DNA of 64,000 bases from assembly GCA_943788635.1 (NCBI GenBank), contig CALSRA010000007.1, forward strand, positions 27,035 through 91,034. Reading direction: 5' to 3'. The notes below the pieces were generated by a model. That model did no database searches. It was not told the origin of the DNA and was given only the letters and a program-made list of their open reading frames with translations. The number at the start of each line of letters is the position of its first letter. Position 1 is the first letter of the stretch. The translations under genes and the position numbers were made by a program. This document shows positions 7,390 through 23,507 of the stretch, one piece after another. This stretch comes from an uncultured Alphaproteobacteria bacterium (lineage in GTDB: Bacteria; Pseudomonadota; Alphaproteobacteria; UBA8366; GCA-2717185).

Positions 7390-7397
7390 TCGTTCTG

Positions 7398-8096
7398 TCA
7401 GCTGAACCGCGTTTTCAGCAAAATTCGCGCAGTAACCGCAAGGCTGCCTAGCGCGGCGGAACTGTCACGGGCCAGTCCGATAATGCCGGGCAGATCCTGC
7501 GGACGGGTCAGCAGTTTTCCAAGAACGGCAAACGGTCGGCGGTGGCCGTCCGGCCCCATCCCAACCAGTGCCGCTGCCGGGATAGCGCGTGTTGCCGGGT
7601 CCGCGATGGCGCGTATCACCAAAAGCGGAATACCGGCCTTTGCCGCCACCCGTGCGACACCGTGACTTTCCATATCCGCGGCAACAGCGTCTGTTTTATC
7701 CCGCAGCAACGCTTTTCCGGCAGAAGACATCACCGGCGTATCAATTCCGGCAACACCACCGGTTTCAACGCGGCATTCCAACCCGATCCTTTCCGCAAGC
7801 AATTGCGTCCAGGCCGGAGCGGTATCCGTTTGGGTCAGGTCTGCATCCTGCCAAACGAATGTGCCCACCACGATATCACCCGGTGATCGGGACGGGTCGA
7901 GACCACCCGCAATGCCGAAACTGACCAGCACATCGGCGCCATTTTCAAGATGTTGCATGGCGACGCTGGCGGCGCGCTCGGCGCTGCCACCTGCCACCCC
8001 AACAAACGGCCTTTCGGATTCCGGCTCGCTATCGAACACCGCTTCGATCCGGGCGGCTTCAACGACGAGGCCTGTTACGAGTCCCAGGCGGGTCAC
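7398..8096 (-). CDS. hpnG: Hopanoid-associated phosphorylase/nucleosidase HpnG
   Basis: PNP/MTAN-like fold sequence (LVSFGIAGGLDP..., VAADMESHGVARVA). The longest ORF reaches 8159, inside shc. I favour GTG at 8096, which overlaps the shc stop as GTGA. Confidence 0.75.
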   Translation of the reverse strand: MTRLGLVTGLVVEAARIEAVFDSEPESERPFVGVAGGSAERAASVAMQHLENGADVLVSFGIAGGLDPSRSPGDIVVGTFVWQDADLTQTDTAPAWTQLLAERIGLECRVETGGVAGIDTPVMSSAGKALLRDKTDAVAADMESHGVARVAAKAGIPLLVIRAIADPATRAIPAAALVGMGPDGHRRPFAVLGKLLTRPQDLPGIIGLARDSSAALGSLAVTARILLKTRFS

Positions 8097-10153
8097 ATGC
8101 CGTGCGGCACTGTATTGGCGTTGCCGACCTGAAGGTTTCTGTAGCGCGCCAGCGCCCACAGCGGAAAATAGGCGCTATAGCCGTGGTAACGCAGGTAAAA
8201 TACCCGCGGGAAGCCGACTGCGGTGTACCAGGCTTCGGTCCAGCGGGCACCGTCACGTTCGGCCGCAACCAGATACGCGACACCACGTTTCACCGCATCC
8301 GAATCGACCTCTCCCGCCGCCATCAGACCCAGCAACGCCCAGGCAGTTTGCGACGGGGTGCTTTCCTTTTCCATGTCACGGGTTTCGGTCCAGTAGGTCG
8401 CACCGTCTTCCCCCCATCCACCATCGCTGCGCTGCCGGCTCTTCAACCAGTCCACGGCCTTGGTTATATGCGGGGCCGTCATGTCTTCGGACGCTGCGTT
8501 GAACGCGCACAGGACCGACCAGGTCCCGTAAATATAATTTGTGCCCCAGCGGCCGAACCAGGATCCATCGGGCTGCTGGGTTTCCCGCAGGTATGCGAGG
8601 CCGCGCTCGACAGCAACCCTGCCAGATTCCTCATCGATCTGCGCCAGCATACTCACGCAACGTGCGGTCACATCTTCCGTCGGCGGATCAAGCAACGCAC
8701 CGTGATCCGCGAAGGGAATATGATTCAGATACGTGTTTGTATTCTCCGCATCAAATGACCCCCAGCCGCCATTTTGCGACTGCATGCCGACGATCCATTC
8801 CGCCGCACGATCCATCGACTCTTTCAAAGCCGGGTCTTCCATACGATGCAACGCCATCGCGACAACCGCAGAATCGTCCACATCGGGATAGTGATCGTTC
8901 CCGTACTGAAATGCCCAGCCACCGGGCCTTAGCCCCGGACGGTTGTCAGCCCAGTCGCCAACGACATCCAGCACCTGCCGGTCTGCCAACCATTTTGCAG
9001 CCTGCTGGAGCTTCTCACTATCCTGCGGCACACCGGCCTCAAGCATCGCCTGCGTTGCCAGGCCCGTATCCCACACCGGCGACACGCAGGGCTGGCAATA
9101 CCCGCGATCCTCTTCAAGAACCAAAAGCCGCCGGATCGCCGCCTTTGCGGTGACCAGGTCAGGATGGTCCTTCGCAAACCCCAACCGGTCGAATGCCATG
9201 ACCGTATTGGCCATAGCGGGGAAAATTCCACCCAGACCATCCTCGCCGTTGAGCCTTTCCTGAACAAATTCAACGGCTTTGCGGAATGCTCGTTGCCGGC
9301 GATTCTTCGGATACTGCCGTTCAACGACGCGCAAAGCCTTGTCCAGGCCGATAAAGAGGGTTCCCCAGAGTGAACCCGTGGGATTACGCATGTAATGCTT
9401 CACGTCATTCGCCGGCATCACAAAAAGCTCGTCTATATGGACCCCGCGCGGATTTCGGGCGCGCGGCTTCAGCGCCATCAAAATCAGCAGGGGGACGAGA
9501 ACGGTACGTGACCAGTAGGAAATTTTTGAAATGTGGAACGGAAACCAGCGCGGCAAAAGCATGATTTCCACCGGCATAACCGGCACCGCGCGCCAGGGCA
9601 GCTGGTCGAACAGCGCCAGGGCAATACGCGTAAATACATTGCAGGTCGCAGCACCGCCACGCGCCAATATCGCTTCGCGGGCGCGCAGCATATGCGGCGC
9701 ATCTATGGGGTCGCCTGCAAGCTTCAGCGCGTAATACGCCTTCACGCTCGCGCTGATATCAAACGCCCCCTTGTGAAACAGGGGCCACCCGCCGTGATCG
9801 CCCTGAATTTCGCGCAGATAAACGGCCAGTTTACGCTCTATCCCATCGTCGATTTCATCAAGGAAATGTTCCAGCATGATGTATTCGGATGGAATCGTCG
9901 CATCAGCTTCGAGTTCGAAAACCCAATGGCCATCATCTTTTTGCAAAGCACCAAGCGCATCCGTCGCATCATCGACGACGGTATTCACTAAATCCAGAAG
10001 CCGGTCATCGCTTCCTATGGGCCCGCCGCCGACATACGCGTCAGCGTTGCTGACTTCCCTGGCAGTATCCATTATCGCTACGCTATTCTTCCCATTCACC
10101 GCATAAGTACACCGATTCGACGCTTCATGCTCCAACAATCGGAATATTGTCAA
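8093..10153 (-). CDS. shc: Squalene-hopene cyclase
   Basis: 686 aa. DxDD motif (PDVDDSAVV) and multiple QW repeats (QxxDGSWxGxWG, QRSDGGWGE, QNGGWG). TTG start at 10153 is preceded by GAGG. An alternative ATG lies at 10072. Confidence 0.95.
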   Translation of the reverse strand: MTIFRLLEHEASNRCTYAVNGKNSVAIMDTAREVSNADAYVGGGPIGSDDRLLDLVNTVVDDATDALGALQKDDGHWVFELEADATIPSEYIMLEHFLDEIDDGIERKLAVYLREIQGDHGGWPLFHKGAFDISASVKAYYALKLAGDPIDAPHMLRAREAILARGGAATCNVFTRIALALFDQLPWRAVPVMPVEIMLLPRWFPFHISKISYWSRTVLVPLLILMALKPRARNPRGVHIDELFVMPANDVKHYMRNPTGSLWGTLFIGLDKALRVVERQYPKNRRQRAFRKAVEFVQERLNGEDGLGGIFPAMANTVMAFDRLGFAKDHPDLVTAKAAIRRLLVLEEDRGYCQPCVSPVWDTGLATQAMLEAGVPQDSEKLQQAAKWLADRQVLDVVGDWADNRPGLRPGGWAFQYGNDHYPDVDDSAVVAMALHRMEDPALKESMDRAAEWIVGMQSQNGGWGSFDAENTNTYLNHIPFADHGALLDPPTEDVTARCVSMLAQIDEESGRVAVERGLAYLRETQQPDGSWFGRWGTNYIYGTWSVLCAFNAASEDMTAPHITKAVDWLKSRQRSDGGWGEDGATYWTETRDMEKESTPSQTAWALLGLMAAGEVDSDAVKRGVAYLVAAERDGARWTEAWYTAVGFPRVFYLRYHGYSAYFPLWALARYRNLQVGNANTVPHGM

Positions 10154-10200
10154 TACGCGCCTCTATGACGGTGCAAGGGGCGAATTCACCCTGACGCTTA

Positions 10201-11451
10201 TCAGGATTCCAATACAGCATCCGCCGCAGCGTGACCCGACCGAACAGCGCTTTCAATCGTCGCCGGCAAGCCGGTATCGGTCCAGTCACCGGCGAGGCAA
10301 AGGTTCGCCAAAGACGATTGTGTCTTCGCCCGCAGAAGCATCGCTGCCGGTGTCTGCGCAAAAGTCGCGCGCCGCTCCTTCACCACCCGAAAGGGCGGCA
10401 CGGGCGCGCTGGGCAATTCGAGTGCGCGGGACACATCTGTCCAAACGCGGTCGCCAATCAATTCCGCAGCCTGGTCCGCCAGGTCATCGGCAGCGCTTAC
10501 CGTAACGGACGCAATATCGTGTCGAACGAAAAGCCATTGAGCGACCCCACCGACAAGACCGAGCAACGAAACATCTCCATGCGCCATAACAGGCGATGGC
10601 AGCCTGTAATGCACATTGACAATGGCGTGGCTTCCTTCGGGCACAGATACGCCGGGCAGCACGGATTTAAGGCCCTGCGGCGGGAGCGCCAGAATAACCG
10701 CATCGGTTGGCTGAACGACAACGCCCGTCTCCGTGAACTCCAGGTGAGTCACCAGATTATCGCGGGTTTGCACTGTCTTCAGACGATGCGAAAATCGGAT
10801 ATCCGCCCCCAGCGCAGCGAGCCGTTCCAGCGCCGGGTCAACCAGGCTGGCAGAAAGCCCCTTTCGCGCAACGAGCGGCCGGCACGATGCCGCGCCATGG
10901 GCGAAGGTTTCCGTCAGCACCTGCCATAGGGGCTGTGCCGCAGCCTGGGCTGCCGGCGTGTTCAGCGCCGCAACGGCAAGCGGCTCCCAGAACGTTTCAT
11001 ACAGTGAACCGCTCCCGCCCAGCACTTCCTCTACGGTCGCGGTCGGTGGTGCGGATCGAAGCCGCAACGCCGCAAGAAAATCCCGTGCCCGTGAGGCAGG
11101 TGGCCGCCGTCCCGCACACAATATCCACCACGGAATCGGCCCGGCATTTGGTCTTACCGTCCACCGCGCCCCCGAATCGAGGTCAACAAACGGAAATTCG
11201 GCAACAGCAGGACCGGTGAGCGTATCCCGCGCCCCGATTTCATCAAGATATGCCATGGCGGAACGGTTTCCGCTCATCATCAGATGATTGCCGTTGTCGA
11301 TAACCGCATCGAGAACACTGTCGTGGAAAGACCGGCAGCGCCCGCCGGCATGACCACTTGATTCATACACCGTCACACGCCGTCCCGCCGCAGCCAGACT
11401 GACCGCGGCGGCAAGACCCGCAAGACCGGCACCAACAATATGCACACGCAT
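10201..11451 (-). CDS. hpnE: Hydroxysqualene dehydroxylase HpnE (FAD-dependent amine-oxidase family)
   Basis: 416 aa. N-terminal FAD motif IVGAGLAGLAAA. Lies between hpnD and shc. Confidence 0.8.
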   Translation of the reverse strand: MRVHIVGAGLAGLAAAVSLAAAGRRVTVYESSGHAGGRCRSFHDSVLDAVIDNGNHLMMSGNRSAMAYLDEIGARDTLTGPAVAEFPFVDLDSGARWTVRPNAGPIPWWILCAGRRPPASRARDFLAALRLRSAPPTATVEEVLGGSGSLYETFWEPLAVAALNTPAAQAAAQPLWQVLTETFAHGAASCRPLVARKGLSASLVDPALERLAALGADIRFSHRLKTVQTRDNLVTHLEFTETGVVVQPTDAVILALPPQGLKSVLPGVSVPEGSHAIVNVHYRLPSPVMAHGDVSLLGLVGGVAQWLFVRHDIASVTVSAADDLADQAAELIGDRVWTDVSRALELPSAPVPPFRVVKERRATFAQTPAAMLLRAKTQSSLANLCLAGDWTDTGLPATIESAVRSGHAAADAVLES

Positions 11452-11461
11452 CTCTGCGGCC

Positions 11462-12367
11462 CTAGAACAGACTGTACCGCAGGGCGAGGCGGAGCTTCAC
11501 CCAGCGCGACAGATGAACCGGTGCGTCGAGCTGCTTCCAGCCCCGCTGCCGAAGCAGTTCGAAAATTTCCCGATAAACCGCCATCATCATTATCGCCGGT
11601 CGCATTTTGCGCTGGTCAAGCTGCCCCATCAGGTCACTGCTGACAGCGAATGCTTCCTTGGCCAGATCGGCAAGATCGACACACACCCGCGCAACTGCGG
11701 GATCAGCCAACAAGGCATCGGGCGTGGTTGCCACAACGCCATGCTTGTCCAGCAGTTCTCTTGGCAGATAGAGCCGCCCCCACAACGCGTCTTCGTGAAC
11801 GTCACGCAGAATATTGGTGAGCTGCAGCGCATTTCCCAGGCTGATCGCCAGATCCGCTGCCGGCGCCCGCGTTTCACCAAACGCATGGATTGACAGCATG
11901 CCCACCGCACCAGCCACCCGCCGGCAATACAGAAAGAGATCCGCATAACTGGGACCCCAGATATCAGCGCGGGCATCCATTTCCATACCATCGATGACGG
12001 TCAGAAATTCAGCTTTAGGCAGATCGAATGCATGAACGGGTTCCAGCAGGGCCTGGGCTGTCAGCAACCGAGGCCGCCCTGCATAAAGGTTCTCGATTTC
12101 CTGCCGCCACGCATCCAGACGTTTCAGCTTTTCCGGACCAGTCCCTGGTTCATCCGCGATATCATCGACTTCCCGGCAGAATGCATAGATCGCGTACATG
12201 GCTGCACGCCGGTCCGCCGGCAAGACACGCATCCCCAACCGAAAAGACGACCCTGATCGTTCGACAACCTGGCGCGCATGCTCAATTGCGGCAGCCTCAT
12301 CGAACGGTGCAGAACCGTCGCTTCCCGGGTTCGGTTGTTTTTCCGCGGTTGAAAGCAAATTTGCCAT
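11462..12367 (-). CDS. hpnD: Presqualene diphosphate synthase HpnD (squalene/phytoene synthase family)
   Basis: YAFCREVDDIADE and NILRDVHEDAL Asp-rich motifs. ATG at 12367 (MANLL...) is preferred. The longest ORF extends to TTG 12433. Confidence 0.85.
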   Translation of the reverse strand: MANLLSTAEKQPNPGSDGSAPFDEAAAIEHARQVVERSGSSFRLGMRVLPADRRAAMYAIYAFCREVDDIADEPGTGPEKLKRLDAWRQEIENLYAGRPRLLTAQALLEPVHAFDLPKAEFLTVIDGMEMDARADIWGPSYADLFLYCRRVAGAVGMLSIHAFGETRAPAADLAISLGNALQLTNILRDVHEDALWGRLYLPRELLDKHGVVATTPDALLADPAVARVCVDLADLAKEAFAVSSDLMGQLDQRKMRPAIMMMAVYREIFELLRQRGWKQLDAPVHLSRWVKLRLALRYSLF

Positions 12368-12448
12368 CGCCTGTTCGATCTCAAAAATATGCGCCGTGTT
12401 CGCGGATAGGCTCCCAGCCAACGCGGCGCGCAACCTTGTATAGCAGAA

Positions 12449-13297
12449 TCAGCCGGACCGGCGAACCACATCCCAGACAGCGCCGACGCCACAGCAAAGA
12501 TATTGCGGACGCCGCAGGACGACCCGTTCCGCCAGCGGATCCCGGTCGCGTAATTCCAGAATCAGGCGGTTCGCAATCCGGACAATCATTGCCGCTTCCA
12601 ACGCGAAACGCCGGTTCTGCAACTGCCCCGCCAGGGGTTGCGCAACGCGCATGAGGTCTGCAGTCAGATCAAGGCAGCGATCAATGACCCGCCGCAAACC
12701 GCTATCAGTCGTCACGCCATCCAGCGCCGCCGTCGTAATACCCGCTTCGGCCATCCAGTCACCGGGCAAATAGACCCGGTCCATTGTCCGAAAATCATCC
12801 TGGCAATCCTGCAGATGGTTGATGACCTGCAGCGCCGCACAAAGCGCATCGGACGCCGGATACGCGTGCCTGGATTCACCGTGCAGGTCTATCAGGTAAC
12901 GGCCAACAGGGGCTGCCGATAATCGGCAATACCCCATCAGCTCATCCCAATCGGCATAACGGGACTGCACCGCATCCTGCTTGAAGGCGTTGATCAGGTC
13001 GATGCAATGCTGCGGATCGACACCCGTTGCGGCCATGCTGTCACGTATCGCATTTGCTTTGGCATATGCAGGGTCCGCGCCACCGGGTTCCCGCAAGGCG
13101 TGCTCGAATCCGGAAAGCCGGTCAATTTTTTGCGCCGCGGGCAGTTCCGGATTATCCGCGATATCGTCTATTGCCCTGGCATAGGCGTAAAATACAGCGA
13201 CATGCGGCCGCAAGGCCGCCGGAAGCAGCCAGGACCCCACCGGGAAATTTTCGTCACCCGCCTGTTTCCCGGACGGTGTTTCTACTGATTCAGACAA
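12449..13297 (-). CDS. hpnC: Hydroxysqualene synthase HpnC (squalene/phytoene synthase family)
   Basis: YAYARAIDDIADN and INHLQDCQDD motifs. The longest ORF (to 13369) overlaps hpnB by 49 nt. TTG at 13297 has GGGAGGA 5 nt upstream and lies just after the hpnB stop. Confidence 0.85.
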   Translation of the reverse strand: MSESVETPSGKQAGDENFPVGSWLLPAALRPHVAVFYAYARAIDDIADNPELPAAQKIDRLSGFEHALREPGGADPAYAKANAIRDSMAATGVDPQHCIDLINAFKQDAVQSRYADWDELMGYCRLSAAPVGRYLIDLHGESRHAYPASDALCAALQVINHLQDCQDDFRTMDRVYLPGDWMAEAGITTAALDGVTTDSGLRRVIDRCLDLTADLMRVAQPLAGQLQNRRFALEAAMIVRIANRLILELRDRDPLAERVVLRRPQYLCCGVGAVWDVVRRSG

Positions 13298-13320
13298 AAG
13301 TTCCTCCCGAAAGCGGCAGC

Positions 13321-14487
13321 TTATTGCTGATAGACACGGCCTTTCCAGCCACCCCCAACGCCCCGCCAATGGCGAACAGCGGAAGAAATCGTCATTGCCG
13401 TATAAAGCATACCAGCGAGAGGCAGGAACACAGCCGTATACAGCGGTCGATCATACAATCGCAATGTCGGAATATAGGCGACACACATCAGTATATAGGT
13501 GGCTAACCCCGCCAGGACGGTTATGGGCGCCAACCAGCCAAAGGCCAGAACCACCAGCAACGGAACGCCATACACAAGCGCCATACCCATAATGCATCCC
13601 ATCAGCAGCCAGGGCGAGTAGCGCAATTGCGTATAGGCGCTTCTGGCAACCATGTTCCAGATTCCACTGAATCCGCCATAAGGACGTGTGGAACGGGTCT
13701 TCGCATCCAGACTCAGCGAAAGACGGCCACCCGCATCTGCGAGACTTCGGGCCAGGGCACAATCGTCAATCAATGCGCCCTTGATCGCATCCATTCCCCC
13801 TGACCGGTGCAGCGCGGAACGGCGCACCAGCATACAGCCCCCGGCCGCTGCCGCCGTATCCCGGGTATCATCATTGACCCGGCTGAACGGATAGAGCATC
13901 TGAAAAAAGAAAACGAAGGGCGGTATCAAAAACCGTTCCCAGAAGCCCTTCGTCATCAACATCACCATGATCGATACCAGGTCTTTGCCTTCGGTTTCAG
14001 CGGTGTGAACCAGGCGCCGCAGGTTCGAAGGGGCATGTTCAATATCGGCATCGCTGAACAGAATATATCGCGCCTGCGGGGCGATACTGTCTGCGTGCGC
14101 CACCCCCTGCGCCATCGCCCAGACCTTGCCTGTCCAGCCCGGCGCAAGGGGGGCACCGTCCACCACGGCCAGGCGATCGGCATGCCCGGCCTCCTCGGCC
14201 GCCGCGCGGGCAATCGCCGCCGTGCCATCATTGCTGTTGTCATCAACCAGAACGATTGAAACCGGGCGCGAATAGTCCTGCTGCTGCAACGACAAAACCG
14301 TACGGCTAATGACATCGGCCTCATTGCGTGCCGGGATGACCACAAGAACATCCGGCCATTCCGGTAGATCGGGATTTGGCAATTCGTTGGCCGACAGGGT
14401 GCTCCGCCAGAAACCGCCATGAAAGAAGACAAGATAGACCCATGCGGCACATGACATCACGGCCAGAATTGCAGCGACGTAAATCAA
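13321..14487 (-). CDS. hpnB: Hopene-associated family-2 glycosyltransferase HpnB
   Basis: 388 aa. GT2 motifs VVIPARNE, VDDNSNDGT and FSDADIEH, plus C-terminal TM helices. TTG start lies 3 nt after the upstream stop. Confidence 0.8.
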   Translation of the reverse strand: MIYVAAILAVMSCAAWVYLVFFHGGFWRSTLSANELPNPDLPEWPDVLVVIPARNEADVISRTVLSLQQQDYSRPVSIVLVDDNSNDGTAAIARAAAEEAGHADRLAVVDGAPLAPGWTGKVWAMAQGVAHADSIAPQARYILFSDADIEHAPSNLRRLVHTAETEGKDLVSIMVMLMTKGFWERFLIPPFVFFFQMLYPFSRVNDDTRDTAAAAGGCMLVRRSALHRSGGMDAIKGALIDDCALARSLADAGGRLSLSLDAKTRSTRPYGGFSGIWNMVARSAYTQLRYSPWLLMGCIMGMALVYGVPLLVVLAFGWLAPITVLAGLATYILMCVAYIPTLRLYDRPLYTAVFLPLAGMLYTAMTISSAVRHWRGVGGGWKGRVYQQ

Positions 14488-14490
14488 GGG

Positions 14491-15243
14491 TCACACGCGG
14501 AATACATACTCTTTGCCCGTCTCCCGCTCCACATCAGGCGGGAAACTCTTGCGCTTGTCCGCATAATACTGTGCACGGTGGTCGCCGTCGGCACGCCGGT
14601 TGTAGGTCACGTACAGGACACGACGGGGCGATTGCGTAAGATTTGGCGCTGACCGATGGGGCGCATAGGAATCAAACAGAACCACATCACCGGGCTGAGT
14701 CGGACAGGAGTGGTATTTGATCTCGCTGCCTTCGCCGTCATCCAGCGGTTGCCACTCGTTGCCGATCAGCCCCCTGTCATGCCATCCGGCTGCCATTTCC
14801 AGGCAACCATTCGTCGTCGTCGCCGCATCGATACTGACCAGTGCCGTAATGTGAAAATCCGAATAGACGTTCCAGCCTGCCTGCGCATCCTGATGCGCCT
14901 TGAAGCCGTCGCCGCCCGGCATCTTCATATTGATCTTTTCCTTGAAAAGAACCGCGGCTTCGCCAAGCAATTGTGACACTGCATCAATCATGGCGCCGGT
15001 CCGGATCAGATCGTCAAAACCGGCATGGAACGGACAGAAATTTTCGACCCGGGACACGACACGGTCCGCACCAGCAATCAGGCTGTCTTCATAATAGACC
15101 ATGTGTTCACCCGGCAACTCGGGCCAACCGAGGATTTCTTCCGTCCATGTGGCAATTTTGCCGACACTCGCCACGTCGTACATTGCCGGGACGATGACAT
15201 AACCGTCTCGCCGAAAAGACCGAATCTGTTCTTCTGTCAGCAT
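14491..15243 (-). CDS. Phytanoyl-CoA dioxygenase (PhyH)-family Fe(II)/2-oxoglutarate oxygenase
   Basis: 250 aa. LTEEQIRSFRRDGYVIV N-terminus, HxD triad element (AHQD) and distal His (YAPHRS). It is the first gene of the minus-strand hpn operon. Confidence 0.75.
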   Translation of the reverse strand: MLTEEQIRSFRRDGYVIVPAMYDVASVGKIATWTEEILGWPELPGEHMVYYEDSLIAGADRVVSRVENFCPFHAGFDDLIRTGAMIDAVSQLLGEAAVLFKEKINMKMPGGDGFKAHQDAQAGWNVYSDFHITALVSIDAATTTNGCLEMAAGWHDRGLIGNEWQPLDDGEGSEIKYHSCPTQPGDVVLFDSYAPHRSAPNLTQSPRRVLYVTYNRRADGDHRAQYYADKRKSFPPDVERETGKEYVFRV

Positions 15244-15439
15244 TGCGTACGGGCCTTCAATTCCGTCGATTCAGATTGCGAATTTATATAGATGGCTCCA
15301 CCACTTATCTCGCATGCAAAGACTAGCGCTGCAAGAGCTGGCGCGGACCCTCTGACGAAAATTAACCATATCGCTTCAGGTTTCGTTAACACGGTAACGG
15401 CATACTCCGCACGAATTCTAAGTAGCCGGGAACGGATCC

Positions 15440-17128
15440 ATGCAGGCCATCGATTTGTTGGCAAACAGCATTCCACAATTTGAAGCCAATATCGACGACC
15501 ACGAAACGATCGTCGCCGCCTTCGATAAGCTGAGAGTCGCCGTCTCAATTTTTGATGAGAACGACTGCCTGACCTATTGCAACACGCATTTTCGGTTTAT
15601 TTTTCAATCATTTCAGGCCCTGGACCGGCTGATTGGCAAGTCCTACGCAGAATTGCTTCGCTGCAAGCTCGACAATAACGAAATTGCCGGGACCCAGGTC
15701 GTGGAAGACCCGGACGCCTGGATTGCCTATCGGATGACGTTACGCAAACGCCCGATGGAAACACCGCTGGAAGAACGTCTCACGGATGGCCGCTGGATCC
15801 GCATCAACGAAAGAGCATTGGATAATGGCGGAACGATCCGGATGTACACGGATATTACCGCAACGAAAGTCAATGAATACCGGTTCCTGAGTGCCGTCGA
15901 GGACAGCCGCGACGCACTCGCATTCTGGGATCAACGGGACCGCCTCATCATGCGCAACGATGCGTTTGAGGAATTGTTTTATACGCCGGGCGAAAACCTC
16001 GTGCCGGGCGTTGCTTTCGACGACGTACTGCGCGTCGCTGCCGAATATCACTTTCATATCGAAGATTGCCAAGCCAGCGATTGGATTGAGGCTCGTGTCG
16101 AGCGCCACCGTCTACCGGATCATCGGGAAATGTGGCGACACAAGGACGGTCGATGGTTTCTGGTCAACGAGCACCGGTCGCGAGACGGCGGTGTTGTAAC
16201 GCGCCTGTCAGACGTCACCGAGGTCAAGGAAAACGAACTCGCGATGATCGAGCGCGGCACGACCCTGTCCGGCGCCGTGCATCAGCTCGAAATGTCCAAG
16301 GTCATGTTCGAAAAACAGGGCGCCGAGCATGTCAACGCCATCGAAGAACTGGCCATTGCAAAGACAGATCTGGAATCTGCCAATGCCAGCCGGTCGCGGT
16401 TTCTCAGCATCATCAGCCATGAACTTCGAACACCGATGAATGCGATCATCGGTTTTTCGGAAATCATTAAAAACGAAATGCTGGGCCCGTTGGGTACCGA
16501 GAAATATGTCGAGTATGCTGGTGACATTTTCACCAGCGGTCAGCATCTGTTGTCATTGATCAACGACCTGTTGGACATGTCAAAGGTCGAGGCCGGAAAA
16601 TGGCAACTCCATCGAAGCGACGTCAATATCGAATCCCTCGTCCTTTCGTGTTGCAGACTGATGTCGGAACAGGCGGCAAGCGCCGAAATCAGCATCGAAC
16701 ATTCCTTCACCGATATTCAGGGGCCTATCCATATCGACGAGCGGGCAATCCGACAGGTTCTGCTGAACCTGCTCTCCAATGCCCTGAAATTCACCGGTCG
16801 TTGCGGCATTGTTGCCGTCACCACCGCGATTTACGACAATTTCCTGACAATCTCGGTCGCGGACAATGGCGTCGGCATCCAGAACAGGGATCTGGCGCGC
16901 GTCTTCAAGCCGTTTGAGCAAGGGGAAAACAACCTGAACCGCACCCATGAGGGAACGGGACTGGGGCTGTCCCTGTGCAAATCACTGATCGAACTTCATG
17001 GCGGCACAATTCATCTCGAAAGCCACGAAGGCGAAGGGACTGTTGTAACCTTTGTGCTGCCATTGCTATTTGATCCGCAGGCGGATCAATCAGCCCCACA
17101 CTCCATCCCGCTGGTCGATTCAGCTTAG
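15440..17128 (+). CDS. PAS-domain sensor histidine kinase (no adjacent response regulator)
   Basis: 562 aa. H-box SHELRTPMNAIIGFSE, N-box LLNLLSNALKF, G-boxes DNGVGI and GTGLGLSL. The N-terminal ~300 aa are PAS-like repeats. Confidence 0.85.
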   Translation: MQAIDLLANSIPQFEANIDDHETIVAAFDKLRVAVSIFDENDCLTYCNTHFRFIFQSFQALDRLIGKSYAELLRCKLDNNEIAGTQVVEDPDAWIAYRMTLRKRPMETPLEERLTDGRWIRINERALDNGGTIRMYTDITATKVNEYRFLSAVEDSRDALAFWDQRDRLIMRNDAFEELFYTPGENLVPGVAFDDVLRVAAEYHFHIEDCQASDWIEARVERHRLPDHREMWRHKDGRWFLVNEHRSRDGGVVTRLSDVTEVKENELAMIERGTTLSGAVHQLEMSKVMFEKQGAEHVNAIEELAIAKTDLESANASRSRFLSIISHELRTPMNAIIGFSEIIKNEMLGPLGTEKYVEYAGDIFTSGQHLLSLINDLLDMSKVEAGKWQLHRSDVNIESLVLSCCRLMSEQAASAEISIEHSFTDIQGPIHIDERAIRQVLLNLLSNALKFTGRCGIVAVTTAIYDNFLTISVADNGVGIQNRDLARVFKPFEQGENNLNRTHEGTGLGLSLCKSLIELHGGTIHLESHEGEGTVVTFVLPLLFDPQADQSAPHSIPLVDSA

Positions 17129-17177
17129 CCGCAAGAGGCGTGCATCGGGGGCCGGGGGCTAAACCGCCGCAGACCGC

Positions 17178-17669
17178 TCAGACGCGGCGATAGGCGTGGT
17201 ACCGTCCAGGTTCAACATCCTGCGGCAACGGTATCGGCGTCAATTCCGGCACCGTATCAAGCGCCTGGTCACACAACACGAGACCTCCCGACACAAGCAA
17301 TCCCGGAATTTTCGGGCCAATTTCACGGACATTCCGCGCCGTCGCCGCGGCGTCGCCATAACCGATATCCGCATGCACCAGTATCCCATTCGGGCCAAGC
17401 CGGTCCGTCGCCGTCAGCAGCGTTTCGGACATCGGCCCCAGAAACATATGCGCACTATCAGGGCGGCAGTCCGGATGCGAAGCCACTTCCAGGTCGAAAA
17501 CATAAATATCCCGGTCCGGGAAAAGATCGCGCAGATGATCATATGTCCGGCCATTGCCCAAACCGAGCTCAAGGATATGGCCATCATTGCCACGCAAGGC
17601 CTCCGCCGCCGCGTTCAGGCAGCTGCGCTGCGCCTTAAGGCGCTCGATAACCGTATCCAGTCGCGTCAT
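17178..17669 (-). CDS. Putative class I SAM-dependent methyltransferase
   Basis: 163 aa. ILELGLGNGRTYDHL resembles SAM-binding motif I, followed by an acidic residue after the next strand (VFDLE). Confidence 0.5.
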   Translation of the reverse strand: MTRLDTVIERLKAQRSCLNAAAEALRGNDGHILELGLGNGRTYDHLRDLFPDRDIYVFDLEVASHPDCRPDSAHMFLGPMSETLLTATDRLGPNGILVHADIGYGDAAATARNVREIGPKIPGLLVSGGLVLCDQALDTVPELTPIPLPQDVEPGRYHAYRRV

Positions 17670-17699
17670 ATTCCTGATCGCCTTTGCCTGCGTTGCAGG

Positions 17700-18155
17700 T
17701 CAGCTCTGCGACTTGGCAACAGCTTCGCGAAGCCGTGCCGTTGTCTGTTCAAGGCGGTGCGCCAGTTCGCGCATGATCTCCACGGCGATTTCCGGAAACT
17801 CGACAATCAGGTTGAAAAACAGGTCCTTTGAAATGCGGAGAGTCGTCAACTGGGACTTGGCGCGGACCGTCGCCGTTCGCGGCACATCGCAAAGGATGGC
17901 AATTTCACCAACAATTTCGTTCTGTTTCAGTGTCGCGACAACCAATGGCCCGCCCGGTGTGTCGATAATAACATCGGCTTCACCACCGATAATAATATAT
18001 GCCGCATCGCCGGAATCGCCCTGTTCGAAGACAACATCCTCTGGACTGTATGTCAGCCGCTCGCTTGTAAATGCCAGCAACTTCAGCTTCGACGCATCGA
18101 TCTTGGCAAAGAGCGGGATGTTCCGAAGGAGTTCAACTTCCTGCTGTAAGCTCAT
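17700..18155 (-). CDS. Stand-alone cyclic nucleotide-binding (CAP/PKA-type) domain protein
   Basis: 151 aa. Intact phosphate-binding cassette VGEIAILCDVPRTATVRA. Strong RBS AGGAGA sits in the 17-nt gap after the ABC gene. Confidence 0.85.
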   Translation of the reverse strand: MSLQQEVELLRNIPLFAKIDASKLKLLAFTSERLTYSPEDVVFEQGDSGDAAYIIIGGEADVIIDTPGGPLVVATLKQNEIVGEIAILCDVPRTATVRAKSQLTTLRISKDLFFNLIVEFPEIAVEIMRELAHRLEQTTARLREAVAKSQS

Positions 18156-18172
18156 TATTCTTCTCCTGGACC

Positions 18173-20830
18173 TCAGCCGGCCGAAAGCAGTGACTGAAAT
18201 TCGCCATCTGCCGTACTCAATTCATCGAACGAACCGGTTTCGACAATTCGTCCCGACTTTAGCACAACAGTCTTACTGAAATATTTTGCATCTGAAACGC
18301 GGTTGAGGATCCACAATACGCCCCGGCCTTCGCAATCCCGCAGGATATTTTCCATCACCGTGTTCTGGCTGAGCGCGTCGAGATTGGCCGATGCCTCATT
18401 CAGGATCAACATGTCGGGCCGGCGGATCAGGCAACGCGCGATCGCCAGTTTCTGCCGCTGGCCCTGCGACAACCGTGCGCCGCCATTACCTGCCTGAAAG
18501 TCGAGGCCGGCCGCGGTCACCGTTTCACGCAACTCCAGTTCATCAACGACTTCACTGATCAATTTGCCGACCTTCGCCTCTGCCTGCGCCTGACCATAAG
18601 ACACCTTTCCGAACAGGATATTATCCTGCAGGGTCGCGGCCGGGTTGTAGGCATCCGCATCGAAGAAGGCGATCGCCTCGCGCAAATCTTCGGGCAGCCC
18701 CTCCGCAAAGACCCGTCTGGCCTCCAGGATGCGTGGCATCATCTGATCATCAATCAAATCAAGGCGGTGCCGTGCCCGGATCAGCTTGAAGGGCAGGGAT
18801 ACAAGCCGGCGACGATCTTCCACCGTCAACCCTTCAGGCCCCCGCGCTGCACGGCCTAGTATGGCCTGGAACTCGGGCAGATCGTCAGATTCGATGAAAC
18901 TGAATTGCTCAAAGAACTCATGCCCGGGCGGCAGGCCCGCGAACAGTTCCAGCATCGTCTGCGCCACCTGCGTCCCCATATCAAGGAAGTCAGCACTCAA
19001 ATTCACCTTGTCGAGGACCACCTGCATATAGGCGCTGTCGGCCAGGTTCTCGAGGTCAAACGCATTCCCGATCGGGAGGCCAAAAAGAATATTCTCGGCA
19101 ACCGACGCATTCGAATTATACGTTTCGATATCGAAAGGTTCTATCAACTGCGCCACGGCCGGGTCCGATAACCTGCCGCGCAATGCGGCGCGTGCGGACA
19201 TAATGAGTTCAGCCGTTTCGGGCTGGCGCTCCGGATCAATCACGCCGCGCAATCCAAACCTGTAAACTTCATCGTCCATATCGACAATCTGCAGGATTTC
19301 GATCAAACGATGCTGCAGCCCATTCAGGTCTTCGACACCGGCTTCTTCATAGTCTACCCAGTCCGAATGGTAGTCATATGGTGAATTCCCCGTGGTAACC
19401 GCCTCTTCCAGGTCCGTCACATGCTCGGCTGAATCCTGGTTGGCCGGGCGCAACGAACGATGCTTCAGGCCATACAGGATATTATCGCCAATCGAAGCCG
19501 CCTGCAGATAAGGGCTGGCATTCACATAGGCGATCCGGCGACCGGTCACAGACTCGGGAAGGTTCGAAAGGTCGCTGCCACCGAACTTGATCGTCCCGGA
19601 TGTCGGCCTGACGAGCCGGGCCAGCACCGCGCCGAGTTCGGTTTTACCGCTGCCGCCATCACCGACAAATGCTGTATGCGCCGTTGTCGAAGTCGTCAGT
19701 GACACAGCATCCAGAGTGCGCACACCGTCTTCATCCGCAAGGCCGATATTGCTCAGGACCAGATCACCCCTGATCGGCGGTGGCCCCTCGGGCTCCGCGA
19801 TCTGAAGCTCTTCGTCAAGCATGCCCTGTGGTTCGAACTGCTCGATCACCTGTTCGTATTTTATGCGAACGTCTTCCTTTTGCTGATACCAGCTCAACAA
19901 TTCCTTCCAGGGGCTGGCTAGCTCCTTGTAGGCATTCAGAACGGCAACAAGCGCGCCGACCGTCAGGTCACCCTGAATGACCAGATAGCCGCCGATCGAA
20001 AAGAAGAAAAATGGCGTAAGTTTGTCGATGAAATTATTGAGGAACTTAATGAAGAACTTGCGCCGATAGATATCGTACCGGATGTCATAGATGGCGCCCA
20101 ACCGGTTGGCGAACCGGGACAGCTCATAAAATGACGTATCATGCGCGTGAATTTCGCTGATCCCTGAAATGGACTCACCCAGGTGATCGGACAGGCGACG
20201 GACATTTTGAACGCGTTGCTTGCCCAGCGCGTTCACCCTCTTCTGCAGCTTCGGGATAATGTAACCCTGAATCGGAATCATCCCGGCGGCAGCGAGACCC
20301 AGCACCCAGTCCTGCATCAGGATATAGCCAACGATCAGCAGCAACTGGCCGCCAAAGAACAATGGATCAGCATATGCAATGCCGATAAACCCGCCCAAAG
20401 GCTCCACCTCCGCGGTGACCATTGGAATCACTTCGCCCTGGCTGACTTTCTTGAAATGCGGCGTCGGGAACCGAAGAATTCGGGAATACAGTTGATATCG
20501 CAGGCGCCGAAGCAGCCTTTCACCCAACCGGCCCTTGTAAACACTGATGTAATATTTGAAGCCGCCGGTAATAAATACCAGGGCGAGATAGGCAAAACTC
20601 AATATCATCAGATAGGTGAGCTGCGTGACATCGAGCGGAATCTCAAAGCCAAACAAGGGCACGTCAAAAGGCGGCGCTGCGCCGTCGCTCCTGATTGCCC
20701 TGTTAACGATGATCTTTGGCAGATCAAGCGTTACAAACAGAAATGGGTAGAATGCGATAATGACAAAAAGCAATACGATCTGCTGCCGCAGACTGTAACG
20801 CAGAATGTATTTGAAGATACTGCTTTCCAT
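18173..20830 (-). CDS. Atypical ABC half-transporter (TMD-NBD) with a large insertion in the NBD and substituted catalytic residues
   Basis: 885 aa with an N-terminal ~330-aa ABC exporter TMD. Walker A GDGGSGKT is at 19640-19663 and the signature LSQGQ is ~390 residues later. Walker B reads LILNEA (Asn codon 18398-18400) and the H-loop reads ILNRVS (Asn codon 18302-18304). Confidence 0.85.
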   Translation of the reverse strand: MESSIFKYILRYSLRQQIVLLFVIIAFYPFLFVTLDLPKIIVNRAIRSDGAAPPFDVPLFGFEIPLDVTQLTYLMILSFAYLALVFITGGFKYYISVYKGRLGERLLRRLRYQLYSRILRFPTPHFKKVSQGEVIPMVTAEVEPLGGFIGIAYADPLFFGGQLLLIVGYILMQDWVLGLAAAGMIPIQGYIIPKLQKRVNALGKQRVQNVRRLSDHLGESISGISEIHAHDTSFYELSRFANRLGAIYDIRYDIYRRKFFIKFLNNFIDKLTPFFFFSIGGYLVIQGDLTVGALVAVLNAYKELASPWKELLSWYQQKEDVRIKYEQVIEQFEPQGMLDEELQIAEPEGPPPIRGDLVLSNIGLADEDGVRTLDAVSLTTSTTAHTAFVGDGGSGKTELGAVLARLVRPTSGTIKFGGSDLSNLPESVTGRRIAYVNASPYLQAASIGDNILYGLKHRSLRPANQDSAEHVTDLEEAVTTGNSPYDYHSDWVDYEEAGVEDLNGLQHRLIEILQIVDMDDEVYRFGLRGVIDPERQPETAELIMSARAALRGRLSDPAVAQLIEPFDIETYNSNASVAENILFGLPIGNAFDLENLADSAYMQVVLDKVNLSADFLDMGTQVAQTMLELFAGLPPGHEFFEQFSFIESDDLPEFQAILGRAARGPEGLTVEDRRRLVSLPFKLIRARHRLDLIDDQMMPRILEARRVFAEGLPEDLREAIAFFDADAYNPAATLQDNILFGKVSYGQAQAEAKVGKLISEVVDELELRETVTAAGLDFQAGNGGARLSQGQRQKLAIARCLIRRPDMLILNEASANLDALSQNTVMENILRDCEGRGVLWILNRVSDAKYFSKTVVLKSGRIVETGSFDELSTADGEFQSLLSAG

Positions 20831-20920
20831 GGATCGGCGCTGCGACCTCCGCCGTGCACGACTGAATTCCCTTATTGGGACACCTTAGCGCAGCATCCTT
20901 CGAGGGTAAACGTTTAGAAA

Positions 20921-21016
20921 TTGATCATTTTTGATCGATATCATTCAAATAAATATTATCCCCTGTTTAATTCTGACCTTTTGATTACTCTGTTAAGCAT
21001 GCAATAGTAGGATCAA
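20921..21016. promoter_or_regulatory. AT-rich divergent control region with phased TTGAT(C/T) repeats
   Basis: TTGATC at 20921 and 20931, TTGATT at 20981, and inverted GATCAA at 21011, directly before ATG 21017. The three direct copies are spaced by multiples of 10 bp. The region is much more AT-rich than its flanks. Confidence 0.4.
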
Positions 21017-22270
21017 ATGACTGTTGGCGGGGAGAGTAAAGGGGATCGGGGCATGAGCGGAGACCATCGCCCGCCGCGGGTACTAGTATATAGTCATGAT
21101 TCGTTCGGGCTGGGCCATTTGCGCCGTTGCCGCGCGATCGCGCACGCCATGTGCGAAGACAACGAAGAACTGTCCGTCCTGATTCTGTCCGGTTCGCCGA
21201 TTATTGGCAGTTTCGATTTTCGGTCCAGGGTCGATTTCGTTCGCGTTCCCGGCGTCATCAAGTTGCGCAACGGGGAATACACGTCCCTGACTCTGCCTAT
21301 GGCAATCGAAGATGCGATTGAAATGCGCGCATCGATCATTCGCCATACGGCCGAAGTCTTTGACCCGGATATCATGCTGGTCGACAAGGAGCCTTCCGGT
21401 CTGCGGGGCGAGCTCTCCGAGACGCTGGAAGTCATGAAGCAGCGTGGCACGCATATCGTTCTTGGTTTGCGCGACGTGCTGGATGACCCCCTGCAGTTGC
21501 GGGCGGAGTGGAAGCGGAAGAACGCCGCCGCAGCGCTGGAGGAATATTACCACGAAATCTGGGTGTACGGCCTGCCGCAAATCTGCGAGCCGCTGGACGG
21601 CATAGAATTGGCCGCATCGACACGGCGCAAGACAACCTATACCGGCTACCTGCAGCGTTTTGCTGATACTCAAACGGTTTCCGAACTGCCCTTCATCAAG
21701 CGCGACGACCCGTTCATTCTTGTAACGCCCGGTGGCGGTGGCGATGGAGAGGAACTGGTCGACTGGGTTCTTCGCGCCTATGAATCAGACAGTTCCCTGC
21801 CGCATAGGTCCGTTATCGTCCTTGGCCCGTTCATGCAGTCAGACCGCCGGGCCGAATTCATCGCGCGCACGGACAAACTGTCAAAAGTCGAAGCCATTAC
21901 CTTCGACGCGCATATGGAAAGCCTGATGGTCAAGGCAATCGCGGTCGTGGCGATGGGCGGATACAATACGTTTTGCGAAATCCTGTCATTCGACAAACGC
22001 GCCCTTATCGTGCCGCGGACTGAACCCCGCCGCGAACAGCTAATCCGGGCCAGCCGGGCAGCGGAATTGGGACTTTTGACCATGTTGCGCGGCGACGACG
22101 ATCGAAAAGCCGACGTCATGGCAACCGCATTGCGCCATCTGCCACAGCAGGACCCGCCGTCTCGGTCGGTTGTGCCCGGGCTGATGGCTGGTCTTGAAAA
22201 CGTGAATATCCTGACCCGGCGCGCTCTCGGCCTTAAAAAACGCCCGTCCCTGGCCCGGAAGCGCGCCTGA
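21017..22270 (+). CDS. Glycosyltransferase (MurG/GT28-like, COG4671-type)
   Basis: 417 aa. N-terminal VLVYSHDSFGLGHLRRCRAIA and C-terminal GGYNTFCEIL, resembling GT-B enzymes of the MurG-like class. An alternative start lies at 21053. Confidence 0.7.
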   Translation: MTVGGESKGDRGMSGDHRPPRVLVYSHDSFGLGHLRRCRAIAHAMCEDNEELSVLILSGSPIIGSFDFRSRVDFVRVPGVIKLRNGEYTSLTLPMAIEDAIEMRASIIRHTAEVFDPDIMLVDKEPSGLRGELSETLEVMKQRGTHIVLGLRDVLDDPLQLRAEWKRKNAAAALEEYYHEIWVYGLPQICEPLDGIELAASTRRKTTYTGYLQRFADTQTVSELPFIKRDDPFILVTPGGGGDGEELVDWVLRAYESDSSLPHRSVIVLGPFMQSDRRAEFIARTDKLSKVEAITFDAHMESLMVKAIAVVAMGGYNTFCEILSFDKRALIVPRTEPRREQLIRASRAAELGLLTMLRGDDDRKADVMATALRHLPQQDPPSRSVVPGLMAGLENVNILTRRALGLKKRPSLARKRA

Positions 22271-22274
22271 CACC

Positions 22275-23507
22275 GTGTCCGTTCAATTTATTCTGAAAGG
22301 GTACCCTCGCCTTTCGGAAACCTTTATTGCCCAGGAAATCCTGGCACTCGAACGGCGGGGCCTCGAGATCAATATCGCATCACTGCGCCACCCGACCGAT
22401 GACAGGGTTCATCCGATTCATCGCGATATCAGGGCAGAAGCACTGTACCTGCCGGAATACCTGTACCAGGAACCCGAACGCGTGCGGGATGCCCGCGCCG
22501 CGGCGCAGCGTCTTCCGGGCTATCAAACCGCGTATGCCTGCTTTCGCGCGGATTTAAAGCGGGATCCCACCCGGAACAGGATCAGGCGCTTCGGGCAGGC
22601 CTGTGTCCTGGCCCACGAGCTGCCCGAAGGTGTCACACGACTGCACGCCCATTTTCTGCATACGCCGGCATCCGTCGCCCGCTACGCCGCCATGATGACC
22701 GGCCTGCCATGGAGCTGTTCTGCCCACGCCAAAGACATCTGGACAACACCGGAATGGGAGATGCGGGAGAAACTGGCGGATCTGGATTGGCTCGTTACCT
22801 GCACCGCCGCCGGCGCGGATTTTCTGGCGGGATTGGCACCGGGGAAAGATACCGTCTCGCTGGTCTATCACGGGATCGATTTTTCCCGCTTCCCGCCGCC
22901 CCCTGACGCCCGACCGGGCCTCGACGGGCAGGCGGCACCCGTCACGATCCTTTCCGTCGGCAGGGCAGTGGGGAAGAAAGGCTATGATGATCTGCTGACA
23001 GCGCTTTCTCGGTTGCCAGCCGATATTAACTGGCGCTTCCGTCATATCGGGGGCGGGCCATTGCTGGAAACCCTGAAAGCGCAGGCACAGCAGCTTGGAA
23101 TTGCGGCACATGTCGAATGGTACGGCGCCCGCGCGCAGGAAGATGTGCTGGACGCATTGCGGCACGCGGATATTTTTGTTCTCGCCAGCAAGACAACCGA
23201 TGACGGAGACCGCGATGGCTTGCCAAACGTCCTGATGGAAGCCCAAAGTCAGTGTTTGCCCGTTCTTTCAACCATGGTCTCAGGCATTCCCGAACTCATT
23301 CACCACGACACGACCGGACTGCTGGTTCCGCCCGGCGATGCGTTGGCCATTGCAACGGCGCTTGAACGGCTGATCCGCAACCCTTCGGAGCGACGGCGCC
23401 TCGCCGACGCGGGACTGGACCGTGTGCATTCGCAATTTTCGATGGACCATGGCGCGGATACCCTGGCGGCGCGGTTCCTTCGGGATCCCCAATCCGCCGC
23501 GGCCTGA
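22275..23507 (+). CDS. Family 4 (GT-B) glycosyltransferase
   Basis: 410 aa. C-terminal GLPNVLMEAQSQCLPVLST...GLLV matches the GT4 EX7E region. GTG start lies 4 nt after the upstream stop. Confidence 0.8.
   Translation: MSVQFILKGYPRLSETFIAQEILALERRGLEINIASLRHPTDDRVHPIHRDIRAEALYLPEYLYQEPERVRDARAAAQRLPGYQTAYACFRADLKRDPTRNRIRRFGQACVLAHELPEGVTRLHAHFLHTPASVARYAAMMTGLPWSCSAHAKDIWTTPEWEMREKLADLDWLVTCTAAGADFLAGLAPGKDTVSLVYHGIDFSRFPPPPDARPGLDGQAAPVTILSVGRAVGKKGYDDLLTALSRLPADINWRFRHIGGGPLLETLKAQAQQLGIAAHVEWYGARAQEDVLDALRHADIFVLASKTTDDGDRDGLPNVLMEAQSQCLPVLSTMVSGIPELIHHDTTGLLVPPGDALAIATALERLIRNPSERRRLADAGLDRVHSQFSMDHGADTLAARFLRDPQSAAA

Follow-up and report, generated by a model that had tools for sequence, protein, structure and literature searches.

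Hopanoids rank among the major membrane lipids of bacteria and serve as geological biomarkers, and several conserved genes of the hopanoid (hpn) clusters are of unknown function, as are the origins of many polar hopanoid derivatives. We examined a 64 kb stretch of DNA from an uncultured alphaproteobacterium (contig CALSRA010000007.1), called the window throughout, together with 10 kb on each side in the same genome (~85 kb in all). The subject of this study is a gene at positions 14491–15243 of the minus strand, which encodes a PhyH-fold Fe(II)/2-oxoglutarate (2OG) oxygenase and stands directly ahead of a run of hopanoid genes. The oxygenase resembles the methylphosphonate hydroxylase PhnY*, and we refer to the subfamily to which it belongs as GWY, after a signature described below.

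The open reading frame (ORF) begins with ATG, encodes 250 amino acids and carries the motifs FKAHQDAQ (H117-Q-D119) and YAPHRS (H196). The PhyH family PF05721 matches residues 10–209 with the full model covered (E = 1.6e-20; 74.7 bits against a cut-off of 22 bits), and the arginine for the C5 carboxylate of 2OG, found about 11 residues past the distal histidine, is present as R207. H117, D119, H196 and R207 are invariant in an alignment of 81 proteins from the locus survey presented below and are 97–100% kept in a second set of 109 representatives; 49 residues are conserved at 97% or more in the 81 sequences. The AlphaFold (AF2) model has a mean pLDDT of 94.1 and a pTM of 0.91, and its top Foldseek matches are all PhyH-family proteins (E about 1e-15, TM-score 0.70–0.75) with the double-stranded beta-helix fold. 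The nearest solved structures are small-molecule hydroxylases, namely proline hydroxylase H11, GriE, SnoN, PHYHD1 and EctD. The gene is real and conserved, and its fold, metal triad and family placement are firm.

Six hopanoid genes follow the oxygenase on the minus strand, and all of them score above the NCBIfam cut-offs of their families. These are hpnB, a hopene-associated GT2 glycosyltransferase (13321–14487; TIGR03469, 521 bits, cut-off 379); hpnC, a squalene synthase (12449–13369 as the maximal ORF; TIGR03464, 284 bits, cut-off 250), whose true start is probably ~24 codons downstream of the maximal-ORF start given an orthologue of 282 aa; hpnD, the presqualene diphosphate synthase (11462–12433; TIGR03465, 312 bits, cut-off 279); hpnE, the hydroxysqualene dehydroxylase (10201–11451; TIGR03467, 386 bits, cut-off 283); shc, the squalene-hopene cyclase (8093–10153; TIGR01507, 811 bits, cut-off 431); and hpnG, a hopanoid-associated phosphorylase/nucleosidase (7398–8159; TIGR03468, 190 bits, cut-off 187). 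After adjusting ORF starts to those of the orthologues, the intergenic gaps among these genes are less than ~130 nt. The junction with the oxygenase is tighter still and reads TGA-CCC-TTG on the minus strand, with the oxygenase stop at 14493–14491, the TTG start of hpnB at 14487–14485 and a gap of 3 nt. This close spacing is kept in orthologous contigs, with a 4 nt gap in one surveyed locus (L081) and a 17 nt overlap in the contig of homologue P0081. No terminator-like or promoter-like site was found between the oxygenase and hpnB, and the counts of such sites over 7200–15600 were at or below the expectation from shuffled sequence.

Upstream, the oxygenase shares a 196 nt intergenic region (15244–15439) with a divergent PAS histidine kinase gene (15440–17128, plus strand; PAS_7, HisKA and HATPase_c domains), which also adjoins the oxygenase in loci L001–L008, L081 and the P0081 contig. 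A candidate promoter lies here on the minus strand and consists of a -35-like CTTGCA (~15334–15329), a 17 nt spacer and a -10-like GAGATA (~15312–15307). Further upstream in the same region are two GTTAA(C/T) repeats (GTTAACG...GGTTAAT) about 50 nt apart, which may be a regulator site common to the kinase gene and the hpn operon. The CTTGCA-N17-GAGATA motif and the GTTAA repeats are kept in 5/5 orthologous intergenic regions. A sigma-70 consensus scan of 15244–15439 found no site and an Rfam search of the upstream region gave no match; the conservation of the motif fits a promoter ahead of the oxygenase. An earlier note on this DNA had described a 250-aa PhyH-like oxygenase with the AHQD motif and the YAPHRS histidine, ending 3 nt before the start of hpnB, leading the operon and followed without meaningful gaps by the squalene-to-hopene genes, and had named a separate terminator or promoter as evidence to the contrary. 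The reading of the ORF, the spacing and the gene order hold as described, no such separating element appeared in the scan, and the position as leading gene fits both the conserved promoter-like motif and the conserved coupling to hpnB.

The cluster continues past hpnG on the plus strand. Here we find hpnH, the radical SAM adenosylhopane synthase (6232–7389; Radical_SAM and DUF3463 matches on an identical contig, and hpnH synteny in related loci); ispH (LytB; 5263–6207; PF02401 on the identical contig); hpnL, a flippase-like/LPG-synthase transmembrane protein (4185–5165; TIGR03476, 321 bits, cut-off 196); and hpnA, a hopanoid-associated SDR/epimerase (3190–4188; TIGR03466, 507 bits, cut-off 368). 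Next to hpnA are two genes that we propose act in head-group synthesis, a cytidine diphosphate (CDP)-alcohol phosphotransferase (2570–3193; PF01066, E = 4.6e-14) as the putative head-group transferase and a PntC/LicC-like nucleoside triphosphate (NTP) transferase of cytidylyl type (1830–2573; PF12804, E = 5e-10) as the putative head-group activator. The last gene, hpnN, encodes an RND/MMPL hopanoid exporter (18–1679); its 5′ end is cut by the window edge, the gene on the identical contig encodes an 856-aa MMPL protein, and hpnN matches were found in related loci. On contig ERZ10646569:contig_4258, which encodes an NTP transferase identical to that of the window, hpnE is called as two fragments of 126 aa and 106 aa (L083, 18372–19101), while the window hpnE is intact at 416 aa; the split is a strain or assembly difference.

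In a wider context, the gene has 4131 homologues at E ≤ 1e-5, and an exhaustive HMMER search over 1.84 billion representative proteins gave 248 matches below 1e-30. We surveyed 80 loci, one genome per species, whose homologues are 48–77% identical to the window oxygenase, and mapped neighbours by tblastn with defined query proteins; 14 of these loci are less than 8 kb long. Counting as linked any homologue with two or more hpn genes inside a distance of 10 kb, linkage was found in 33 of the 80 species genomes, in Alphaproteobacteria, Gammaproteobacteria and Nostocales and in at least five arrangements. The arrangement of the window, with the histidine kinase divergent from oxygenase-hpnB-C-D-E-shc, is found in L001–L007 and L081. 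Others have the order hpnC-oxygenase-dxs-hpnD-E-shc (L011–L019) or hpnC...oxygenase-hpnB-hpnD (L015, L017, L023, L028, L029). In Gammaproteobacteria the order is hpnD-shc-hpnG-oxygenase-hpnN-CDP-alcohol phosphotransferase-hpnA (L022, L025, L031, L034, L036), and a further group combines hpn and phosphonate genes as hpnN-CDP-alcohol phosphotransferase-AEPT-Ppd-oxygenase-NTP transferase-hpnA-hpnH (L077, L079, L080, L065, L067; the phosphonate genes are introduced below). The Nostocales locus (L021) runs HpnI...oxygenase...HpnH-HpnA. These arrangements sit in separate clades of a neighbour-joining tree. The earlier note had called for a survey of whether PhyH homologues recur beside hpn genes, and the answer is positive across several arrangements and phyla. 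We conclude that the hopanoid linkage is real, widespread and not a local accident, and that the gene is functionally part of the hopanoid cluster.

Besides hpn genes, the most constant partners of the oxygenase are an NTP transferase (cytidylyltransferase) and a CDP-alcohol or LicD phosphotransferase. A CDP-alcohol phosphotransferase and/or a cytidylyltransferase is present in 30/80 loci, and in 13 loci the NTP transferase is within 400 nt of the oxygenase. In addition, genes for the synthesis of 2-aminoethylphosphonate (AEP), encoding phosphoenolpyruvate mutase (Ppm), phosphonopyruvate decarboxylase (Ppd) and/or AEP transaminase (AEPT), occur in 16/80 loci, sometimes inside hpn clusters. The clearest view of this is given by the complete genome of Nostocales cyanobacterium HT-58-2 (L021), where HpnI, a B12-binding radical SAM protein, a CDP-alcohol phosphotransferase, the oxygenase, an NTP transferase, a Ppm-NTP transferase fusion, Ppd, AEPT, a Rieske oxygenase, HpnH and HpnA follow one another; Ppm, Ppd, AEPT, HpnI, HpnH and HpnA are all above their equivalog cut-offs. 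Two of these genes flank the phosphonate genes inside the hpn cluster (7723–9360 and 15766–16764 of L021). The best NCBIfam match of the B12-binding radical SAM protein is the PhpK P-methyltransferase family, at a sub-threshold score, and the Rieske oxygenase has weak similarity to the sterol 4-methyl oxidase SdmA, which suggests additional head-group or ring tailoring.

The two putative head-group genes of the window resemble those of HT-58-2. Its NTP transferase shares 45% identity with the free-standing copy in the phosphonate cluster of L021, and its CDP-alcohol phosphotransferase shares 38% with the L021 copy beside Ppm-Ppd-AEPT. The bifunctional IPCT/DIPPS enzyme uses CTP to activate a polar alcohol phosphate, which it then transfers to a polyol. 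The best NCBIfam match of the NTP transferase is the IPCT (N-terminal) half of this enzyme, and the CDP-alcohol phosphotransferase matches the C-terminal half at 42.4 bits, with sub-threshold matches to archaetidylinositol-phosphate synthase (59.7 bits) and phosphatidylinositol-phosphate synthase (57.3 bits).

A related unit was seen on the Rhizobium rhizogenes plasmid pC5.7d (NZ_MK318970.1; L087, 7163–9424), where a gene annotated as 'phosphocholine cytidylyltransferase family', a GWY-type oxygenase and a LicD-family transferase lie side by side in this order. The plasmid oxygenase has 45% identity to that of the window, and there are no hpn or Ppm genes near the unit. We regard it as the same head-group module in an arrangement of independent make-up.

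Among curated families, the oxygenase is matched best by NF052437, the methylphosphonate hydroxylase PhnY* (E = 3e-59, 200.5 bits, residues 2–241). The next is ectoine hydroxylase at 30 bits, and all others score 30 bits or less. Homologues from the Nostocales, alphaproteobacterial, Nitrospinae and Rokubacteria loci score between 180 and 208 bits against NF052437. Two homologues with 63% identity are named '2-aminoethylphosphonate dioxygenase' by JGI, one of which (P0081) has the same context as the window, with the kinase divergent from oxygenase-hpnB-C-D-E-shc. Fusions point in the same direction: the top 150 representatives include 11 with a fused HD (PhnZ-type) domain, one with a fused thiamine pyrophosphate (TPP)-enzyme (Ppd-like) domain and one with a fused DUF5690. 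Identity of the window oxygenase to the HD-fused homologues is about 36–45%, and what they share is a polar core of 16 positions (R65, E67, K101, K103, N105, K107, H117, D119, H196, S198, N201, R207, R208, Y226, K230 and R231). In a joint alignment the window core string, REKKNKHDHSNRRYKR, is identical at 16/16 positions in 4/5 of the HD fusions first tabulated, and the fifth and several further fusions differ from it at one or two positions. A conserved core this rich in lysine and arginine would suit a small anionic substrate and not a C35 lipid, and the oxygenase most likely works like PhnY*.

A second feature divides the family. The signature Q121-x-G-W124..Y127..W164-x-P is conserved at 96–100% per position in the 81 locus proteins (96% for W164, which is Met in L080) and is constant in hpn-linked, Ppm-linked and orphan locus proteins alike. 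It occurs in full form in the R. rhizogenes plasmid copy and in a near form, RGWYYP, in the Ppd fusion, but all HD fusions are without it and carry P-[FY] instead. A PhnZ-like gene was found neither in the window nor in any of the 80 loci. Since the signature splits the family, we take the window protein to belong to a biosynthetic subfamily, sister to the catabolic PhnY* enzymes. In P0137 (653 aa) and P0155 (630 aa), the GWY-type oxygenase domain is joined to an N-terminal domain of ~380–400 aa that spans the membrane and has conserved WDQDSD and GHGDIW motifs. We suspected a LicD-like domain, and it gave no Pfam match; it could be a novel transferase domain.

The likeness to PhnY*, the core common with PhnY*-PhnZ fusions and the constant partners together make a small anionic head group a likelier substrate than a hopanoid side chain or ring. 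We propose that the oxygenase is a biosynthetic, non-catabolic PhnY*-like phosphonate α-hydroxylase acting on an AEP-type head group, a proposal in which our confidence and our doubt are about evenly matched. The earlier note had argued from the PhyH family, whose enzymes hydroxylate branched isoprenoids, to a hopanoid or squalene-derived substrate. That argument is not supported, given a PhnY* match of 200 bits against 30 or less for other families, the core shared with PhnY*-PhnZ fusions, and partners that include a cytidylyltransferase, phospho-alcohol transferases and AEP genes; the +16 Da species that it proposed to look for would probably carry the extra oxygen on the phosphonate head group.

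From the gene content we infer a substrate, a hydroxylated position, an order of steps, an acceptor and a source of AEP. The oxygenase (14491–15243), with Fe(II), 2OG and O2, would hydroxylate C-1 of AEP, whether free, CMP-bound or lipid-bound, to give 1-hydroxy-AEP. The cytidylyltransferase (1830–2573) would form the CMP-phosphonate, and the membrane CDP-alcohol phosphotransferase (2570–3193) would pass the phosphonyl group to an alcohol acceptor, so that a three-enzyme head-group module would be encoded wholly within the hpn cluster of the window. The acceptor would most likely be a hydroxyl of a bacteriohopanepolyol, with a glycerolipid made alongside the hopanoids as the alternative; we favour the former because the module is embedded in hpn clusters of several phyla and because in such clusters every other tailoring gene (HpnI, J, K, O) has a hopanoid as its target. 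HpnL and HpnN could then flip and export the product. Extending this, we suggest tentatively, and as a possibility that we think less probable than its failure, that many marine Alphaproteobacteria, Nitrosococcus-like Gammaproteobacteria and Nostocales make a hopanoid with an AEP or 1-hydroxy-AEP head group and that the window gene is its hydroxylase.

Several observations weigh against this proposal. Ppm, Ppd and AEPT are absent from the 64 kb window and from the 10 kb on either side, and were also absent from the flanks of every locus in the window's own alphaproteobacterial clade. A supply of AEP therefore has to be assumed, whether made by genes in another part of the genome or taken up from seawater. 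Further, 31/80 homologue loci, mainly of Rokubacteria/Methylomirabilota and Nitrospinae, have neither hpn nor phosphonate genes nearby. The NF052437 score of 200.5 bits lies below the equivalog cut-off of 500 bits, which makes the oxygenase a relative of PhnY* and not a member, and the GWY signature sets it apart from PhnY* proteins that are proven or fused, which means that it could have another substrate than plain AEP. A sequence search of the PDB found no close solved relative, the best match being GriE at E = 1.7e-8, and our literature searches found no report of a phosphonate-bearing hopanoid.

The alternative that survives best is that the same enzyme pair handles another small polar head-group precursor, such as N-methylated AEP, 2-hydroxyethylphosphonate or a phosphate-ester amino alcohol, with hydroxylation not necessarily at C-1. 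The aromatic residues of the GWY signature and W164, which catabolic PhnY* enzymes lack, could cage a bulkier or methylated amine or a nucleotide, and a score so far under the PhnY* cut-off is in keeping with this, as are the many loci that have the oxygenase and cytidylyltransferase without Ppm and the conserved Methyltransf_17 gene nearby in the window's clade. However, wherever an adjacent precursor pathway is encoded it is always Ppm-Ppd-AEPT, the route to AEP, and in the wider family no reaction has been demonstrated other than hydroxylation of the carbon alpha to phosphorus (PMC8942020, PMC8154272). We consider another precursor unlikely, though it deserves more weight than the alternatives that follow.

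It is less likely still, and in our view a poor prospect, that the oxygenase hydroxylates the hopanoid itself, either on the side chain at C-31/C-30, giving bacteriohopanepentol (BHpentol) or bacteriohopanehexol (BHhexol), or on a ring carbon. This idea would account for the position of the gene, which leads hpnB-C-D-E-shc and in the window's clade always adjoins hpnB, hpnC or hpnD, with no AEP synthesis genes near it. Homologues also occur in Nostocales and Methylomirabilota, phyla with pentol or hexol producers. The lysine- and arginine-rich core seen in PhnY*-PhnZ fusions speaks against it, being invariant in Ppm-linked and hpn-linked copies, which implies one small anionic substrate for both; so do the nearest structures, which are small-molecule hydroxylases (proline hydroxylase H11, GriE, EctD), and the homologue that accompanies a cytidylyltransferase and LicD on a Rhizobium plasmid without hpn genes. 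A 2025 study of Alphaproteobacteria describes the BHpentol and BHhexol genes as unknown, which leaves room for a new hydroxylase, but the same survey found no candidate gene beside the hpn clusters of cultured pentol- and hexol-producing Alphaproteobacteria (PMC12583986).

An ordinary phosphonate-scavenging PhnY* for AEP or methylphosphonate catabolism, placed at hpnB by coincidence, is very improbable: the best curated match, the JGI names and the abundance of AEP in the environment of a marine bacterium would suit it, but we rejected this reading given that neither the window nor any of the 80 loci yielded a PhnZ (HD) partner, that the window gene belongs to a subfamily never fused to HD, that linkage to hpn genes is seen in three phyla and at least five arrangements, and that the tight coupling to hpnB is conserved.

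With respect to published work, our searches found no paper that assigns an Fe/2OG oxygenase to hopanoid synthesis, in agreement with the earlier note, which had also stated that the hydroxylases of functionalised hopanoids are not known; as mentioned above, the BHpentol and BHhexol genes are still reported in those terms. The same study lists hpnA, hpnB, hpnL and hpnM as without established function and mentions no phosphorus-containing hopanoid (PMC12583986). If our proposal of a head-group hydroxylase is correct, the prediction would at least be a phosphonolipid co-produced with hopanoids, if not a phosphonate-decorated hopanoid, and a phosphono-hopanoid would be a lipid class never described. 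The conserved module predicts compounds that can be searched for, an AEP ester of bacteriohopanetetrol (BHT-AEP, [M+H]+ 654.486) and its hydroxylated form (BHT-hydroxyAEP, [M+H]+ 670.481). Acetylation or periodate work-ups, which are standard for hopanoids, would miss or destroy a lipid of the BHT-AEP type. If true, this would also tie hopanoid producers to marine phosphonate cycling as a source of lipid-bound AEP or hydroxy-AEP. The split within the family has a practical side as well, as a biosynthetic PhnY*-like subfamily is set apart from the catabolic one while annotation pipelines call both 'AEP dioxygenase' or 'phytanoyl-CoA dioxygenase'.

A formula match was noticed along the way. The ester of BHT with 1-hydroxy-AEP (C37H68NO7P) minus H3PO3 gives C37H65NO4, the same formula as BHT + C2H3N, which we understand to be that of 'ethenolamine-BHT'. 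The latter was tentatively reported in Methylocella and Beijerinckia (PMC12583986). We can offer no mechanistic basis for it, and the match may be a coincidence.

The kinase gene opens a block (15440–26384) upstream of the oxygenase that is syntenic across the clade of the window (L001–L007, L081). After the kinase it contains the Methyltransf_17 gene (17178–17669), a cNMP-binding protein (17700–18155), an ABC exporter of 885 aa (18173–20830) and, at its end, a GT28/GT4/GT4/His-phosphatase/GT28 glycosyltransferase cluster (21017–26384). It is possible that the block is part of the same envelope-lipid programme. At the far end of the window, a ComM-like Mg-chelatase gene seems to be split from 62167 to 64000 and beyond (L086, 9036–14118). 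Its ChlI/Mg_chelatase part corresponds to the ORF at 62167–63099 and its Mg_chelatase_C part is found ~3.6 kb further on, with a 245-aa ORF without a Pfam match (63186–63923), a DUF6471 gene, an IS1595 transposase and a SocA_Panacea-domain gene in between. This looks like a mobile-element insertion.

Compared with known systems, the oxygenase is closest to PhnY* of the PhnY*-PhnZ C-P cleavage pathway, with which it shares the PhyH fold, the HxD...H triad, an identical 16-residue polar core and its best curated match. It differs in scoring 200 bits against the 500 required, in having no PhnZ partner and in the GWY signature that follows HxD and marks a lid loop, and the context of PhnY* is catabolic whereas that of the window gene is biosynthetic and related to membrane lipids. 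Since two defining features of PhnY*, the equivalog score and the PhnZ partner, are missing, the oxygenase is not placed in the PhnY* equivalog. The fold and cofactor chemistry are also common to PHYH, EctD, GriE and proline hydroxylase H11, but identity to these is only 16–23% at a TM-score of 0.70–0.75. As they are different subfamilies, the PhyH family name is no guide to an isoprenoid substrate here.

At the level of gene clusters, the nearest published type is the most abundant phosphonate cluster group, 'Burkholderiales_CDP-OH', also called Group 1 phosphonolipids by Li and Horsman (2022). Its seven-gene core consists of Ppm(-PntC), Ppd, AEPT, an aKG/Fe(II) oxygenase, a second PntC and two phospholipid genes, and its predicted product is a 1-hydroxy-AEP lipid that was never isolated (PMC8942020). 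The window has the oxygenase, a free PntC-type cytidylyltransferase and the CDP-alcohol phosphotransferase, and related loci have the Ppm-PntC fusion, Ppd and AEPT as well. It differs from Group 1 in that the three AEP-forming genes are missing over ~85 kb and that the module is split across both ends of the hopanoid cluster; the Group 1 cluster type is itself uncharacterised, and the likeness is drawn from published gene content. Hints of a terpene connection have appeared before. In Nitrosococcus clusters, the genes for squalene synthase and cyclase were remarked to 'hint at a possible phosphonoterpene' (PMC8942020), antiSMASH gives a 'phosphonate-terpene' call for Nitrosococcus GCF 731 (PMC8942020/PMC7285500), and a genome survey of acidophilic Acetobacteraceae makes the same one-line suggestion (PMC8776678). 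The shared feature is head-group genes beside squalene synthase and cyclase genes, as seen here in the gammaproteobacterial loci L022, L025, L031 and L034. Those reports are one-line, antiSMASH-level remarks without a hydroxylase, a product or a phylogenetic survey, and the window represents a variant of such a cluster without a local Ppm. If true, our proposal would give a first concrete function to both the 'phosphonate-terpene' and the 'Group 1 phosphonolipid' clusters. The window gene is best filed as a putative biosynthetic PhnY*-like hydroxylase of the CDP-OH-type phosphonolipid module, which is as yet uncharacterised and which in the window is divided over a hopanoid cluster and has no AEP synthesis genes close by.

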